A DNA stretch of 64,000 bases, taken from Longimicrobiales bacterium. GTDB lineage: Bacteria; Gemmatimonadota; Gemmatimonadetes; Longimicrobiales; Gaopeijiaceae. The DNA is taken from NCBI GenBank assembly GCA_965202985.1, contig CBDBCF010000001.1, positions 480,001 through 544,000 of the forward strand. The letters run 5' to 3'. Of this stretch, positions 38,601 through 44,600 are shown piece by piece (position 1 is the first letter of the stretch; every line of letters begins with the position of its first letter). Position numbers: made by a program.

Positions 38601-41600
38601 GCCTCGTGTGCGCGAAGGTTCGCTGGACCGCTACGACGGCCTCTTCGGCGTCCGCAACGGCGACGGCCCCGCCGAAGGACCGGCCCCCGACGGCGCCCGC
38701 CGCATGGAAGGAGACGCTCGACGAGCCCCAAGCAGCCCTTCGTCGTGGACGACGCCGAGGTGGACCGCATGCTCAAGGAACTGCGCATGCCCACCATGAA
38801 GGACATGTGGCGGCCGTTCGCCGACCGGGCACAGCGCGAAGGCTGGTCCCACGACCGCTACCTCGCCCAGCTGGCCGAACAGGAACTCGCCGACCGGGCG
38901 CGCCGACGCTTCGAGCGCCACCGCGCCGAGGCCAAGCTGCCCCCCGGCAAGTCGCTCGACAACTTCGACTTCGGCCGCCTGCCCGGACTGTCCGAACGCC
39001 TGGTCCGCGTCCTCGCCAACGGAGGCGACTGGATCGACGACGGCCACAACGTCGTCGTCCTCGGCCCGCCCGGCACCGGCAAGAGCCATGCGGGCGGTCG
39101 TCGTGGGCGACCACCGCGGCGCGGGCGATCGGCTGCTGGAGAATCGGGAGTTCCAGCGGTCAGCGCGCATTGGGGCTTCCGCATCCGGGCGTGCAGAGCA
39201 GGTCGGGCGAAGACGAAGGGAAGGTCGAGCGGCCGATCAGCTACGTCCGCAGCAGCTTCTTCTACGGTCGGGAGTTCGTCTCCGACGACGATCTGAACGC
39301 TCGTGCTCGCCGCTGGCTCGACACGGTGGCCAACGTTCGCGTTCACGGCACGTTGAAGCAGCGTCCGTGGTCCGCTTCGAGGACGAGCGGGGCCGGCTCC
39401 TGCCGTTGGCGGGGCGGCCCTACCGCTTGGTCGTCCCGGTCGCGGCTCGGCAGGCGGCGCCGGAGTCGGGCGGTCGCGTCGTGGCGGTGGAGCGGCGGTC
39501 TCTGGCCGAGTACGCCAAGATCGCGGAGGCGTCGTCGTGAAGGCGGTGTCGCGCAGAGACCGGATCGCGGAGATGCTGGCGGACTTGAAGATGCCGGGCG
39601 CGCTCGAAGCGCTTGCCGACATGTTGGCCCGCGTCGACGGTGGCGCTGCGACAGCGGCCGAAGCGATCGAGGAGCTGCTGGCGGTGCAGACCGTGTTGCG
39701 CAACAGCCGTCGGCTGGCCACGGTGATACGGTCGAGCCGTACGGCACGCTGTCCGATCTCGTCGAGTCGCTCGACGAAGCTCAGGCCGCCGGCCGCCTCA
39801 AATAGCGGCTCAAGACGCTGACGCACCCGTCGTTGCTGGTGGTCGACGAGATCGGCTTACTTGCCGGTGAGCCGGAGCGCAGCGACGCTGCTCTTCCCAG
39901 CTGATCATGCTAGCGCTCCACGTCGTGGAACCTCCGGCCGCTGGCGTCGTTCGCGAACATCACGCCCTCGAATCGCCCGCCCATGAAGTCCGGCCGCCTG
40001 CCTGGCGTTGACAATGGTGCTCGATGACGCCACCTTCCGTGACCCACCATCGATGTCGTCTCAGAAACGAGGGCTAGGTTCATGGTCGCGAAGCGGCGAG
40101 AAGACGCTCCTGACATCCACGATCAGTACAGAGCACCCATGATCGCCCTGTGCGATGTAGCCGAGTATGAATTTCCCATCAGCTCCTATGAGACCCATCA
40201 GCTCCTATGAGATTCGAGAACTGGTCTCTCTTTATGAATACGAAGTCGCGTACCGCTGTGCAGAACTCGAGGATAAAGGATACTTAGTAACTAGCGAGAT
40301 CCAGTCGTCATTGTCGCAGGACGTTTCGCCGACGATTGTCGTCAAGCGCATTACAAGCTATGGACGGGACTACGTTCTCGTCGTGTCAAACCCGAAACGA
40401 TGGCCGAAAGTTAAGAAATGGATGGCCAGCTACGGTCTTCCTGCTGGTCAGGTATTTTCCAACCTAATCTTCAAACTGTTTGAATCAGCTAACAGATAGT
40501 CAATAAGACTGTCCCGAACATTTGCAAGTAGAGTCGACTCGGCGACATTTGCCACTAATGCACTGTAAAGGGGAAACGTCAGTCTCTCGAACATCCTAAT
40601 CGCTTCAATCGGTGGCTGCACGACACGGATGTTAGCAAGTTGTTTCTTGTTGATCGCACCAAACACAGTGCCCATTGCATTATATTCTGTCAATCTATGT
40701 TGGATTTCCCTGATAGCATGAAAAGTAAATGACACGCACCCGGACTGATGGAGTACAGCCGCTAGGCCACGTCCAATACAGCATTTTTCGTATGCAATAT
40801 TCGCATGCCCGACTGGGGCACGAACACTGATTAAGGTACTGCCTGGCTGGGCAATCCGTTTGGGAAGTGAACAATAGACTCTATTCTTCGGAAAATGTAA
40901 GCCAAAATCGGCACTGCCTTGAAAAAATGGTAATCCGACGTCAGATTCGGTCGAGTAAGTGCGGCTAGGTGGAGACTGTCCCATTACGATAGAGTAGCAG
41001 TCACCCAGGCGCTCCACAGTCCATCCTTTCGGAATACTGCCAATATCCACGTTAACAAATTCCTCGGGGAACAAATTTATAATATCTTGCGTGATATAGT
41101 TGATCGATTTTGCTTCTGCGTCATTTCGCATCGGGACAAACCATGCTTTGTATATTGCTTGTATCAGTTCGGTCAGAGTTCCGTCCTGTTGTTGGTTCAA
41201 ATGAATCTTATCATCTAGCTTGGTCAGGACGTGAACATACTGACGCTGTGCAGAAATGGGGGGAATGGAGACACAACAGTCACTTAATGCACTAACGGGT
41301 ACTCTTTGCCTGCCTGATGTTCCTGTCATTTGACCGATAGCATACTGACGTAGCCGACTTGAACGGGCCAAATAGTACGCAAATGTGTCATCTGTCACGT
41401 CCGGTCGTCCGCGTGTGACAATGAACTCGGTAGATCCATGGGCATACTCGGAACCGCCAGACTTCGCACAGTACCGAGCAATCTTGCCGTTTTCGAGAGA
41501 CGGGGTAATGCGCGCCATCAGCGTATCACCACATCGAAAACGTGACCCGGTACCGGCGTATGAACGCTCGCTGGATGATTCTACACAGCGATTGCCAGGC

Positions 41601-44600
41601 GTGACGTCAGCCATACCGACAAAAGAATAGAGCTGTCCACGAACAAGAGGTACACTTGGGTTGATCATGACAGCATCACAGTAGCGCATGTCCCTATACT
41701 TGCTTTGCAAACTAGCGCTTCCAGTACTTCGAGAAAGTATCACATGATGTCGGTTGATCACTTTCTGAAAAGCCTCGGGCAAATCTTGCCACACAAGCAC
41801 ATCTACTCGGAACGGAAGATCGCTTTCCGCAAAAGCCTCCTGCAGATCCGATACTTGGTGACGTTGCTTGTGATCGGAAAAGACCACCAAATCGAGATCG
41901 GACTGCGGACGTGCAGTCCAGTTTACACGGGAACCGTAGGCCCATACATCTGTGTCAGGCAAGTACTGCTTGATCAGGTCGAATACTAGACATCTTTCGA
42001 CCGCCGTAAGGTCGATCTCGTGACTCAGTGCCATGATTCCTCGGTCATGGTCTCATAGAGGGCAGTGGCATCTGCTATGAAATCACCGACGACTCCAAGG
42101 CAGTCCTGCGCCTTAGTGATACTGTAATCGTGAGACGTGCCGATACGGTGCTTAGCATAGCCTAGCCATCGCTCCAATGGACCGTCAAGCAAGTCGTTTT
42201 CGAATGCGCACCGGAGGATGGGTTTGGGACTGTTGGGCACATCTGGAATGCCCAGGACGTCTACCAAGTACCGCTTGAGAACCTTCCACATGGAATCGTA
42301 GCAGGTTTCAAAACGATGGACGACTGATTCCGCAATGCCGTCCTGTGTGATCTCAGGCAACGATAGATCGAGCTGGCGATAGTTCGCGTGCTGCTCTCGC
42401 AACCGTGCAAGGGAAAGGCGGAACTTGTCGTAGTTGATCATCGCGGTGCATCGTCGTTCGGAGGAGGGAACCCCAGTTTCGCCAGGTTGGCCTCGATAGC
42501 AACGTCTAGTCGCCGGGCCTCTGCCACCTGTTTATGCCATTCGGCGGTTAGGCGTCGCATCTTCACCTCGAAAGGCTCGTCTTCCTCTTCTTCTTGGGGC
42601 TCCACACCCACGTACCGACCTGGTGTGAGTACATAGTCGTAGCCGCGCACATCCTCCAGCGAGGCTCTCTTACAGAATCCGGGCACGTCTTCGTACTGAT
42701 CCGTTTCAGAGTCGGTGCGCCATGCGTGGTAGGTGCCCGTGATGCGGGATATCTCCTCTCCCGTGAGTGTCCGGTGGGTGCGGTCCACCATTCGCCCGAG
42801 TTTCCGGGCGTCGATGAAGAGAATTTCGCTGTGCCGGTCCCGTGAAAGAAACCACAGGCAGGCGGGAATCGGCGTGGAATAGAAGAGCTGTCCCGGAAGG
42901 GCGACAATGCAGTCCACTAGCTCCGCGGCCACCAATCCCCGGCGAATCGTCAATTCGGCCTTTTGGTGTGAACTCATTGAGCCGTTGGCAAGCACGAAGC
43001 CAGCCACCCCCCTGGGCGACAGGTGGTGGACGATGTGCTGGACCCAAGCGAAGTTGGCGTTGCCCTTGGGCGGGACGCCGAACTGCCACCGTTGATCTTC
43101 CTTCAGCCGATCGCCTCCCCAGTCGCTCACGTTGAAGGGCGGATTGGCGAGAATGTAGTCGGCCTTGAGGTCGGGATGGAGATCGTTGTGGAAGGTGTCG
43201 CCCTGAGCGATCTGACCCTCGATTCCGCGAACTGCGAGATTCATCTTGGCAAGTCCCCACGTCGTGTAGTTGGACTCCTGGCCGTATATGGAGATGTCGG
43301 GCTTGGCCGACGGCTCACCGTTCGCGGCGTGACCTGGCTCGCCGTTTTCGTTCGGCTTCTGGTGCGCCCGTATGAATTCGACGGACTGCACGAACATGCC
43401 CGACGAGCCGCAACAGGGATCGTACACGCGGCCCTGGAAGGGTTCGATCATCTTGACCAGCAAGCGGACAATGCAGTGCGGCGTATAGAACTGGCCGCCG
43501 CGCTTGCCCTCGTCGGCGGCGAAGCGGGAGAGGAAATACTCGTAGATCCGGCCTAGCACGTCCTTCGAGCGGGCGGCCTCGTCACCAACCATGATGTTGC
43601 TCACCATGTCTATAACCTGCCCGAGACGCGCCTGGTCCATAGACTGGCGGGCGTAGTCCTTCGGCAGCACATCCTTCAGTCCCGGATTGTCGCGCTCGAC
43701 GGCGACCATCGAGTCGTCCACCATTCGGCCGATGCCCGGTTGCTTCGCATTGGCTTTCAAGCGCTCCCATCGGGCCTCGGGCGGCACCCAGAAGATGCTC
43801 TTCGCCCGGTACTCGTCCCGGTCCTCTGGATCGGCGTACTCGTCTTCTTCGAGCTTGGCGTGCAACTCCTCGAAGGCGTCGGAGACGTACTTTAGGAAGA
43901 ACAGCCCGAGGACGACATGCTTGTACTCGGCGGCATCCATTGAGCCGCGCAGGGCGTCGGCCATCTTCCACAGCTTGGCCTCGTAGCCGGTCGTGGCGGC
44001 GGAGGTTGGGGGCTTGGCGTGTTGTCGTGCTGGCATCGATGTGGCCCGATCTTCTGACTTCTGACGTGTCCGAATCGTCAACATTGGCGTTGCCAACCGC
44101 CTCGGTCAAGCCCTGGCTTGGGGGCCGCCGCCACCGCAGGGGCCAAGCGGGAGCCACGGGCATGCCACGCGGGCCGTCCGTCAGGCGGAGGCTTCGCCTC
44201 GCCGACCTCGCCGCGACCGACGCACTCGGCGACACCCGGCGGGCACAGCGACGTCTCCGGCTACGCCCGATTCGGGGACGCGGGACGGGCTCGGCCAGCG
44301 ACGCCACGTCGCCCCCGTCCATCGTCTGCACCGTCACGCCCACCACCGCGCCCGCCTCCAGTCCACGACCTGCCCTAGCTTGTGACCCTATGCTCCAATG
44401 CCGGTGCAAGATCGAGGGACAGGCCGTGGCTCTCTTGCCTGTACTACTCCTCTTCCGGTCCTAGAAGCTTTTCCAGTTGGGTGTGACCCCCGCCAATCTT
44501 TCCCAGGACGTGCTGTGATGTCGTAAACGACACGCGGATGCCTCCACGGCCCTGAAGAAACTCGTCATCGACCCTGGTCACCCTGACATCCTGTATGTCG

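Follow-up and report, generated by a model that had tools for sequence, protein, structure and literature searches.

A type I restriction-modification operon from a Longimicrobiales bacterium raises the question of what a minimal nucleotidyltransferase (MNT) domain does at the N-terminus of a specificity subunit. The operon lies in a window of 64,000 nucleotides (contig CBDBCF010000001.1, positions 480,001 to 544,000), the whole stretch of DNA that was analysed and whose coordinates are used throughout. The survey's finding placed a HEPN/MNT pair inside the operon with the MNT covalently part of HsdS, and this anatomy is right: HsdS is fused to the MNT, the presumed antidote of the putative toxin gene directly upstream. 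The further proposal, that the two form a toxin-antitoxin pair wired into the restriction complex, is as a whole only partly supported, although the catalytic residues of the MNT and the R-x4-H-x-Y motif of HEPN, both mostly conserved, are compatible with such a pair. The genes and domains concerned are as follows.

42438-44096, minus strand: hsdM, type I N6-adenine methyltransferase subunit (Pfam N6_Mtase, E 1.1e-101, and HsdM_N, E 1e-26; PADLOC MTase_I, E 4.8e-205)
42025-42441, minus strand: HEPN gene, 138 aa, HI0074 / NTase_sub_bind family (Pfam NTase_sub_bind)
40448-42034, minus strand: MNT::HsdS, a single 528-aa frame (Pfam and PADLOC)
41732-42016, minus strand: MNT domain, residues ~7-101, HI0073-type (Pfam Polbeta and NTP_transf_2; PDB 1no5)
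41699-41731, minus strand: linker between the MNT and HsdS parts, residues 102-112 (pLDDT <50 at residues 105-111)
40448-41698, minus strand: HsdS body, residues 113-528, stop codon included (PADLOC Specificity_I, E 1.4e-75; Pfam Methylase_S)

On the minus strand hsdM, HEPN and MNT::hsdS follow one another directly, the stop of one gene overlapping the start of the next. ORF analysis reproduced the frames and overlaps reported earlier, 4 nt between hsdM and HEPN (ATGA, the hsdM stop and HEPN start) and 10 nt between HEPN and MNT::hsdS. The placement of hsdM was also correct, but the end given for it, 44036, is only the first ATG; the full frame starts at 44096. Counted from the TTG there the protein has 552 aa, and counted from the ATG at 44036 it has 532. 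An assembly artefact does not account for the fused frame, which contigs of independent runs carry uninterrupted: one contig each of runs X2 and X3, which belong to a different study than the possible source run X1, spans 40300-43065 free of indels and with 0 differences, and a contig of run X4 spans the fusion junction, 41663-41890, with 0 differences.

The domain matches first reported for the fused protein were recovered (NTP_transf_2 at residues 21-92, Polbeta at 30-103, Methylase_S at 200-284 and Specificity_I over 249-516), as were NTase_sub_bind over residues 3-133 of the HEPN protein and the motifs YGSRVNW...SDLDLVV in MNT-HsdS and HRIGTSH(DY) in HEPN. The MNT motif residues are G34-S35, D46-x-D48 and D78. 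A sequence search matched the domain to HI0073 (1no5) at E 2.1e-19, and its model superposes on that structure with a TM of 0.84-0.87 and an rmsd of 1.8-2.0 at 39-40% identity. It also matches the MNT chains of 7bxo, 6m6v, 5yep, 7ae2 and 8xeh, and its structural neighbours are solved MNT antitoxins and MntA-HepT complexes, some with entry titles that name AMPylated HEPN and Tyr mutants. In the HsdS body there are two target-recognition domains along with a pair of long conserved helices (260-299 and 476-515); its AF2 model has a pLDDT of 89, and Foldseek pairs it with the HsdS structures 3okg and 5ybb_D (E 1e-23 to 1e-26). The protein is predicted to consist of an independently folded MNT, a short flexible tether and a complete HsdS, the modelled tether being disordered and the MNT making no rigid contact with the HsdS body.

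The HEPN protein carries R99-x4-H104-x-Y106, matches Pfam NTase_sub_bind at E 1e-18 (68 bits; cut-off 31.8), and aligns with HI0074 (1jog) at E 5.4e-9, the R-x4-H-x-Y stretch being the same in both; it is a putative RNase toxin. HI0073 and HI0074 of Haemophilus influenzae are the closest solved relatives of the two halves. There they are two free small proteins, whereas in this genome a 528-aa HsdS carries the MNT as its N-terminal domain, and the pair resides in a type I operon. A free-standing HEPN-MNT pair is encoded elsewhere in the same genome.

The original view of HI0073/HI0074 suggests one alternative, in which HEPN is the substrate-binding subunit of a two-subunit nucleotidyltransferase that is not a toxin-antitoxin system and that, anchored to HsdS, would modify a restriction-modification subunit (for example in restriction control), DNA ends or a phage molecule. 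It agrees with the names of the families and with the title of the 1no5 entry ('two protein nucleotidyltransferase'), and also with three relatives (L036, L050 and L054) in which HEPN has lost both His and Tyr while the partner MNT keeps GS..DLD and the third acidic residue. We consider this highly improbable, however: over 18 HEPN rows the Arg is kept in all 18, the His in 15 and the Tyr in 14, the signature of AMPylation-regulated RNase toxins. Moreover, MNT-HsdS occurs without HEPN (L031 and L039), but no HEPN without an adjoining MNT was found among the related loci examined, an asymmetry of toxin and antidote that points to toxin-antitoxin logic.

The explanation that we prefer, and hold at about even chances, is a type I operon with a built-in HI0074/HI0073-type module acting as a HepT/MntA-like (type VII) toxin-antitoxin system whose adenylyltransferase antitoxin is tethered to HsdS. 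The HEPN protein would act as an RNase toxin through R99 and H104, and the tethered MNT would neutralise it enzymatically through adenylylation of Y106, the way MntA acts on HepT. HsdS would go on working as the usual specificity subunit of M2S1 and R2M2S1 complexes, and the antitoxin would have the same supply, location and lifetime as HsdS; were HsdS absent, degraded or no longer made, fresh toxin would escape modification. The mechanism is borrowed by analogy from the type VII systems (Shewanella SO_3166/SO_3165, Aphanizomenon and Legionella HEPN-MNT), with which the locus has in common the MNT fold with GS..DxD and the HEPN R-x4-H with a neighbouring Tyr. Passages available from the literature describe adenylylation of HepT by MntA (PMC7641770) and predict nucleotidylation of the conserved HEPN tyrosine (PMC3710099).

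Several observations count against a HepT/MntA-like system or set this locus apart from the known ones. The HEPN belongs to PF08780 rather than PF01934/DUF86, and both NCBIfam models fall short, MntA_antitoxin at 36.3 bits (cut-off 60) and HI0074 at 45.1 bits (cut-off 55.8). The antitoxin is neither free nor separately degradable, and the toxin gene comes first, the opposite of the MNT-then-HEPN order that the accessible text of PMC3710099 gives as nearly universal for such dyads. Three of the 18 HEPNs lack His and Tyr though their MNTs keep the active site, another (L048) has an internal deletion, and the free-standing pair might cross-protect. The fused MNT-HEPN proteins FhepTA likewise have an MNT antitoxin domain linked to another protein of its own module, but in these, as far as the available extract of PMC13000451 describes them, the toxin itself is the fusion partner and not a subunit of a different machine; the two domains are joined by a linker.

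The fusion is conserved and is therefore no accident of this genome; complete hsdM...hsdR loci from many phyla contain it, with a HEPN gene directly upstream. In the phylum search 24 of 151 genomes match, the window's own included, which agrees with the 23 of 150 others counted earlier. The matches then reported as one frame over both parts (G117, G100, G061, G133 and G080) and as short MNT-only frames (G123, G141, G079, G124, G130 and G005) were confirmed; G124 holds a further one-frame match, and G064, G058 and G132 have MNT and HsdS pieces in one open frame. Of the 120 best homologues, 93 have an N-terminal MNT plus HsdS, 91 of these keeping G[ST]..DxD, and among the 150 best representatives of 50%-identity clusters 126 have both domains, always with the MNT N-terminal, and 22 are MNT-only. 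Fused loci come from Chloroflexota, Deltaproteobacteria, Latescibacterota, Longimicrobiales, Rhodothermales and one archaeon (a Cenarchaeum MAG), among other taxa. Across 67 fused proteins G34 and D46 are invariant, D48 is kept in 66, S35 in 65 and D/E78 in 64. Of 17 distinct other fused loci (L032 and L053 counted as one), 15 have a HEPN gene directly upstream; each of the 10 upstream ORFs that were tested is recognised as NTase_sub_bind, and 10 of 11 fused loci have a homologous HsdR downstream.

Conservation bears on a second alternative, possible but doubtful in our judgement: that a HEPN-then-MNT pair was inserted between hsdM and hsdS and the frames merged neutrally, with nothing sensed or signalled. 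If the MNT stop and hsdS start overlapped, one small change could have joined the frames and left both halves unchanged in function, and the fusion would persist because re-splitting requires a new stop plus a new start. Unfused operons of the same gene order, with MNT and hsdS overlapping or adjacent, fit such a route (L010; Acetobacter ascendens plasmid pAP1447-1, MNT 7004-7321 and hsdS 7321-8616). So do the disordered linker of this protein and its counterparts in 67 fused relatives, which are polar, variable in sequence and 5-38 residues long, and a quick MNT tree on which 22 free-MNT rows are scattered among the fused ones (21 changes against a shuffled mean of 20.7). Other toxin-antitoxin genes also occupy the equivalent place, HicB-like in L031, MqsA-like in L024 and, according to the part of PMC5499597 available, PIN-type pairs. 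Against neutrality, the fused state predominates, 126 to 22 in the best 150, among sequences that have diverged deeply (35-60% identity) and come from many phyla. Some of the MNT-only rows, moreover, hardly differ from fused ones, and these may be fragments. Tandem MNT-MNT-HsdS forms (P0005, P0022 and P0026) suggest, in addition, that the tethered position itself is kept.

A full hsdR, missed earlier, lies on the same strand 5.2 kb downstream of MNT::hsdS, beyond DNA that is not part of the core system.

31553-35218, minus strand: hsdR, 1221 aa (HSDR_N, SWI2_SNF2, T1R_D3-like, T1RH-like_C; NCBIfam hsdR, 561 bits)
35441-40499, no strand: intervening DNA, outside the core system (composition and Pfam)
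35441-36943, plus strand: Mrr_cat gene, Mrr-like (Pfam Mrr_cat, E 8e-11)
~37041-39826, no strand: IS21-like remnants, 70% GC (Mu-transpos_C_2 in an istA-like ORF)
40167-40499, plus strand: DUF2513-like ORF (28.1 bits, under the 29.6 cut-off)

This hsdR probably supplies the system with its restriction subunit. GC3 is 0.94 in hsdR but 0.38-0.54 in hsdS, and the HsdR protein has an insert of ~180 residues (~298-477) absent from relatives. No homologues of the Mrr_cat gene, IS21-like remnants or DUF2513-like ORF were found in 37 related loci. The same operon occurs on plasmid pZMOB01 of a cultured bacterium, Zymomonas mobilis ATCC 10988 (NC_017180.1), with hsdM, an HI0074-family HEPN bearing R-x4-H-x-Y, a 527-aa MNT::HsdS and hsdR tightly packed and, unlike here, nothing inserted between hsdS and hsdR.

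The survey's stronger reading was a guard resembling PrrC, in which the MNT would keep the HEPN RNase modified only while M2S1/R2M2S1 is intact and unperturbed; anti-restriction proteins (DNA mimics, Stp-like peptides) or destruction of HsdS would stop modification, and the RNase would arrest the infected cell. PrrC-EcoprrI, an anticodon nuclease guarded by a type IC enzyme and the model for an RNase restrained by a restriction system, is likewise a HEPN RNase with its gene inside a type I operon; inhibition of the enzyme by T4 Stp activates PrrC (available portions of PMC3874165 and PMC12707154). Restriction-modification operons are associated with at least 16 HEPN clades, for which an analogy with PrrC has been proposed (PMC3710099, accessible text). 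The covalent, conserved link here and the hsdR kept in 10 of 11 fused loci are consistent with a guard. PrrC differs, however, in having an ABC-ATPase domain and no MNT, in being masked non-covalently by the enzyme and in the place of its gene between hsdS and hsdR, whereas the presumed antidote here is covalently fused to HsdS. With only a predicted disordered and variable tether joining MNT and HsdS, there is no evident path along which an allosteric signal could pass, and since AMPylation is covalent, release of HEPN would need new toxin synthesis or an unknown de-AMPylase. Release of the toxin on loss or phage inhibition of the system is further weakened by the unfused operons of the same order and by the 3 of 18 HEPNs that, lacking His, appear catalytically dead. 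It may also be weakened, as may any HepT/MntA-like system, by the viability of a plasmid hsdS deletion in Z. mobilis ZM4, whose doubling time was near-normal (82 versus 78.5 min); the available sections of that report (PMC8432527) give this HsdSp, possibly equivalent to the MNT-fused HsdS, two CDD domain superfamilies and place one unnamed gene between it and hsdM. We regard a guard as unlikely.

Toxin-antitoxin and defence genes within hsd operons are a known habit, as with PIN-like toxins (PMC5499597) and TgvAB in the type I region of V. cholerae VPI-2 (PMC12409362), but the available text of both papers presents separate genes and describes no covalent HsdS fusion. The novelty first claimed needs qualifying: no published description of an MNT-HsdS fusion was found in searchable literature, but the architecture itself is abundant in public data, where RefSeq labels it plain subunit S and the pZMOB01 gene is annotated only 'restriction endonuclease subunit S'. 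Common as the layout is in nature, it is apparently undescribed. It may couple the restriction machinery to a suicide RNase and, if the HepT/MntA-like reading is true, would stabilise the hsdMS genes or arrest growth as a second line of defence, an effect that could be incidental or selected for.

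The survey's finding that a HEPN gene lies between hsdM and an hsdS fused to a nucleotidyltransferase (MNT) domain was borne out: three minus-strand open reading frames stand in this order within 40448-44096. Pfam and PADLOC scans of the three proteins returned the same figures and the same family assignments, thus reproducing those of the survey. The hsdR gene, absent from that finding, is present on the same strand 5.2 kb from hsdS, beyond inserted DNA. The features of the locus and its surroundings are:

42438-44096 (-), hsdM; Pfam HsdM_N (E 1e-26) and N6_Mtase (E 1.1e-101), PADLOC MTase_I (E 4.8e-205)
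42025-42441 (-), HEPN gene, 138 aa; Pfam NTase_sub_bind, 68 bits against a cut-off of 31.8
40448-42034 (-), MNT::hsdS, 528 aa; Polbeta and NTP_transf_2 at residues 21-103, then Methylase_S; PADLOC Specificity_I (E 1.4e-75)
35441-36943 (+), Mrr_cat protein, 500 aa, with a long C-terminus without assignment
31553-35218 (-), hsdR, 1221 aa; HSDR_N, SWI2_SNF2, domain 3 and a HindI-like C-terminal domain (T1RH-like_C)
46796-48013 (-), YhgA-like transposase
48134-49540 (+), AAA_14/DUF4143 ATPase (PADLOC PDC-S01)
49542-52991 (+), 1149-aa protein without a family

The hsdM stop and the HEPN start share an ATGA, the HEPN and MNT::hsdS frames overlap by 10 nt, and a GAGGA sits 5 bases before the MNT::hsdS start. 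The fused frame is genuine: in two sequencing runs (X2 and X3) that belong to a different study from that of the possible source run (X1), single contigs span 40300-43065 free of differences and indels, and a contig of another run (X4) also covers the MNT-HsdS junction. Translation starting internally at Met116, which would make an additional, free HsdS, was considered and is not supported; a methionine is found there in just 14 of 67 relatives, and a clear ribosome-binding site was not seen.

In an AlphaFold2 model of the fused protein, built on 67 fused relatives (mean pLDDT 89), residues 11-101 form a compact alpha/beta domain and residues 105-111 have pLDDT below 50; these are followed by a canonical HsdS body with two beta-rich domains and long helices at 260-299 and 476-515. 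The two target-recognition domains and two long conserved helices between them that characterize HsdS are thus recognized by the model, by Foldseek (matches to the HsdS structures 3okg, 5ybb_D and 1yf2) and by PADLOC. In the fused relatives the linker between the two parts is polar and varies from 5 to 38 residues. HI0073 is the closest relative of the MNT domain by sequence (E 2.1e-19), and in Foldseek its structure (1no5) matches the N-terminal domain with a TM score of 0.84-0.87, an rmsd of about 2 and 39-40% identity; the MNT antitoxins of solved HEPN-MNT complexes match more weakly. The GS-x(n)-DxD motif and third acidic residue of an MNT are supplied by G34-S35, D46-L-D48 and D78. All 67 fused proteins share G34, R36 and D46; S35 is retained in 65, S45 and D48 are each retained in 66, and D or E occupies position 78 in 64. 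Of 21 MNTs derived from genomic loci, every one has GS..DxD and 18 have the third acidic residue.

The 138-aa HEPN protein is closest by sequence to HI0074 (E 5.4e-9) and carries the R-x4-6-H motif as R99 and H104, with Y106 two residues past the histidine. Judging by the titles of structure entries, a tyrosine in this position is presumably the AMPylation site of HEPN proteins, and by analogy we take Y106 to be that site. In 18 aligned HEPN proteins the arginine is kept in 18, the histidine in 15 and the tyrosine in 14; both histidine and tyrosine are lost at three loci (L036, L050 and L054), the tyrosine only at L010, and the HEPN of L048 is a separate frame with an internal deletion. Both partners pass the Pfam cut-offs (NTP_transf_2 and Polbeta for the MNT domain, NTase_sub_bind for HEPN) and score below those of the curated NCBIfam families, with 36.3 bits against 60 for MntA_antitoxin and 45.1 bits against 55.8 for HI0074 (TIGR01987). 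A complex prediction of MNT residues 1-112 with HEPN, using custom alignments, gave a score of 0.00, which counts neither way. PrrC and RloC join an N-terminal ABC-ATPase to a C-terminal HEPN, whereas the 138-aa protein consists of the NTase_sub_bind domain alone; the operon therefore resembles them in logic only, not by family membership.

The partners are not arranged as two small adjacent genes with MNT 5' of HEPN, the order described as usual for such pairs (PMC3710099, in excerpt): here HEPN precedes MNT, and MNT lies within a 528-aa protein. Free pairs of the same subfamily, at L056 and L062, likewise have HEPN first. This order places the MNT stop beside the hsdS start, so that losing one stop codon yields the fusion. 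The L062 pair (5678-6642 of that locus, minus strand; about 1185678-1186642 on contig C1 of the window's own genome, G000) is a second, free-standing HEPN-then-MNT pair without HsdS in the same genome, and could cross-protect against the operon HEPN.

HsdR joins a nuclease N-domain to an SF2 motor and an assembly domain at the C-terminus and, judged from the loci of relatives, is probably the cognate subunit of hsdMS. It carries about 180 extra residues (about 298-477) between nuclease domain and motor that are missing from the HsdR of all related loci; residues 328-467 weakly match Peptidase_S24 (LexA/UmuD-like; 25.1 bits against a Pfam cut-off of 23.3). The DNA separating hsdS from hsdR holds a DUF2513-like frame, IS21-like remnants of 70% GC and the 500-aa Mrr_cat protein. 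The remnants, at 37041-39826, are istA and istB pieces with broken and overlapping frames, inserted in low-GC DNA. No homologues of the Mrr-like protein, the DUF2513-like frame or a 182-aa frame at 44444-44992 were found in 37 related loci, which places all three outside the conserved module. Third-position GC drops along the operon, from 0.94 in hsdR and 0.8-0.9 in the 5' part of hsdM to 0.6 at the hsdM 3' end, about 0.6 in HEPN, 0.5-0.6 in the MNT part and 0.38-0.54 in the HsdS body. The locus is thus a mosaic, and its specificity end has a history unlike that of hsdR. The surroundings resemble an island of defence genes and mobile elements. Matches to Methylase_S and HSDR_N also occur on G000 contig C1 at about 1628694-1637285, 2424482-2427085 and 2540635-2543514, so that this 3.9 Mb genome may hold as many as four type I systems.

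The gene row recurs in distant relatives. Among 37 loci sampled from species-representative genomes, MNT and HsdS share one frame in 11 (L011, L013, L015, L019, L020, L022, L031, L032, L036, L039 and L044), from Chloroflexota, Deltaproteobacteria, Poriferihabitaceae, a Cenarchaeum MAG, Latescibacterota, Longimicrobiales, Rhodothermales and Arenicellales, and a separate MNT lies immediately ahead of hsdS in two (L010 and L024). A homologous hsdR follows in 10 of the 11 fused loci and a HEPN frame directly precedes MNT in 9, the exceptions being L031 and L039; all 10 upstream frames tested score against NTase_sub_bind. Further fused loci from the window's phylum have HEPN upstream in 7 of 7, giving 15 of 17 distinct other fused loci once L053, the same locus as L032, is counted once. 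HEPN without MNT was not seen among the loci examined. This absence, together with the decay of some HEPNs, fits toxin-antitoxin behaviour.

Other small genes, too, occupy the position between hsdM and MNT(-HsdS): a second MNT in L015 (6953-7552), a HicB-like antitoxin in L031 (7582-7956) and an MqsA-like protein in L024 (7596-7835). A small conserved frame of about 110 aa without a Pfam family lies between hsdM and HEPN in L020 (7229-7567) and L044 (7209-7604), and ahead of MNT-HsdS in L039 (4590-4913).

In a search of 5.8 billion clustered proteins, 93 of the best 120 homologues have an N-terminal MNT ahead of HsdS, and 91 of these 93 keep G[ST]..DxD. An exhaustive HMMER search with residues 1-190 against 1.84 billion 50%-identity representatives gave 1,102 matches at E <= 1e-10. 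Both domains are present in 126 of the top 150, always with MNT first; 22 contain MNT only and 2 HsdS only. The fusion family is large, with at least 125 other 50%-identity clusters. Within the phylum, a repeat of the survey's search matched 24 of 151 genomes, the window's own included. It again found single-frame matches over both parts in the five genomes previously named (G117, G100, G061, G133 and G080) and added G124; in G064, G058 and G132, MNT and HsdS pieces lie within one open frame. A quick tree of 143 MNT domains (7 of the 150 proteins were left off, 2 without MNT and 5 with a domain shorter than 85 aa) scatters the MNT-only proteins singly among fused ones, with 21 changes for 22 rows against a shuffled mean of 20.7. 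As some of them also differ hardly at all from their fused neighbours, the MNT-only proteins make up no lineage of their own. The tree has no root and low resolution, and we therefore draw no order of fusion events from it.

No triple HEPN-MNT-HsdS fusion was found among these proteins: the long N-termini of three homologues (P0005, P0022 and P0026) consist of a second MNT in tandem ahead of HsdS, and in L048 the open frame preceding MNT does not encode HEPN. Another homologue, P0023 (737 aa), continues after MNT-HsdS into DUF559/MTES_1575 domains, and a 1890-aa frame in L044 (7962-13631, plus strand) continues into about 1260 residues without a Pfam match.

Carriers include cultured, tractable bacteria. 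On plasmid pZMOB01 of Zymomonas mobilis ATCC 10988, hsdM, HEPN, a 527-aa MNT::HsdS and hsdR follow one another directly, and the annotation of the fused gene reads 'restriction endonuclease subunit S'. In Acetobacter ascendens pAP1447-1 the row is the same except that MNT is a gene of its own, of 105 aa, directly adjoining hsdS. In Z. mobilis ZM4 a type I system on a plasmid is active and may share the fused architecture. Its HsdSp is reported to have two domain superfamilies, with one unnamed gene between its gene and hsdM (PMC8432527, in excerpt). HsdSp may be equivalent to the fused protein. Two primer stretches from the portion of that paper covered did not match pZMOB01 at up to 3 mismatches. 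Three Zymomonas records were matched in the plasmid collection, none of them the ZM4 plasmid.

The window operon belongs to a large, conserved type I family whose HsdS includes, as a domain, the MNT partner of a HEPN encoded upstream. Judged from motifs and homology, the toxin-antitoxin reading appears well grounded, and a HepT/MntA-like module is its simplest form. The HEPN RNase (R99, H104) would be inactivated through adenylylation of Y106 by the MNT, an enzyme that would ride on HsdS. This chemistry is borrowed from the HepT/MntA literature (PMC7641770, in excerpt); HEPN nucleotidylation was predicted in 2013 (PMC3710099, in excerpt), and AMPylated HEPN structures are named in the entry titles of our structural matches. 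The tether would equate the amount and lifetime of the antitoxin with those of HsdS and place it in the M2S1 complex. By analogy it could serve addiction or a PrrC-like back-up, making a guard or addiction reading plausible, or it could be neutral. Several points speak against strong coupling through the tether: the tether varies and is disordered in the model, MNT and HsdS also occur unfused, some HEPNs are dead beside live MNTs, the NCBIfam scores fall under their cut-offs, and the ZM4 plasmid hsdS, possibly an equivalent, was deleted with little growth effect (PMC8432527, in excerpt). A self-guarding class of type I systems, in which HsdS would double as the HEPN antidote, is a stronger proposal by analogy, and we regard it as rather unlikely. 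Unmodified RNase would then accumulate once HsdS was removed, degraded or blocked, through anti-restriction proteins, phage-induced shut-off or hsd gene loss, and would abort infection or kill the segregant.

HEPN genes near restriction-modification genes and the PrrC analogy are established ideas, and HEPN domains fuse to restriction-modification nucleases, helicases and ATPases but not methylases; the portion of the text covered does not mention MNT on a specificity subunit (PMC3710099). Toxin or defence genes within type I operons are also known, namely PIN toxins (PMC5499597, in excerpt) and TgvAB (PMC12409362, in excerpt), and the known fusion of another system joins MNT to HEPN instead (PMC13000451, in excerpt). 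The word 'nucleotidyltransferase' is absent from two reviews of type I and host-dependent systems (PMC3874165, PMC12707154), and 'HEPN' from the 2025 review as well. A literature search, covering the full text of articles and part of the PMC3710099 supplement text, found no description of an MNT-HsdS fusion. The family is apparently unremarked in print; the architecture may be shown in Figure 5 of PMC3710099, where 'RM_TRD' is defined in the legend, or in Additional file 1 of that paper.

Few defence-related modules are as common as type I systems and HEPN-MNT pairs. The fusion bears on how toxin-antitoxin pairs connect with other defences, and the covalent link between antidote and HsdS offers a clean experimental handle, available on the Zymomonas mobilis plasmid (fused) and the Acetobacter plasmids (unfused). 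The MNT domain is hidden by the current 'subunit S' annotation, and deleting such an hsdS for better DNA uptake may also take out an antitoxin. A self-guarding class, if true, would be a large and overlooked covalent counterpart of PrrC-EcoprrI, in bacteria and archaea.
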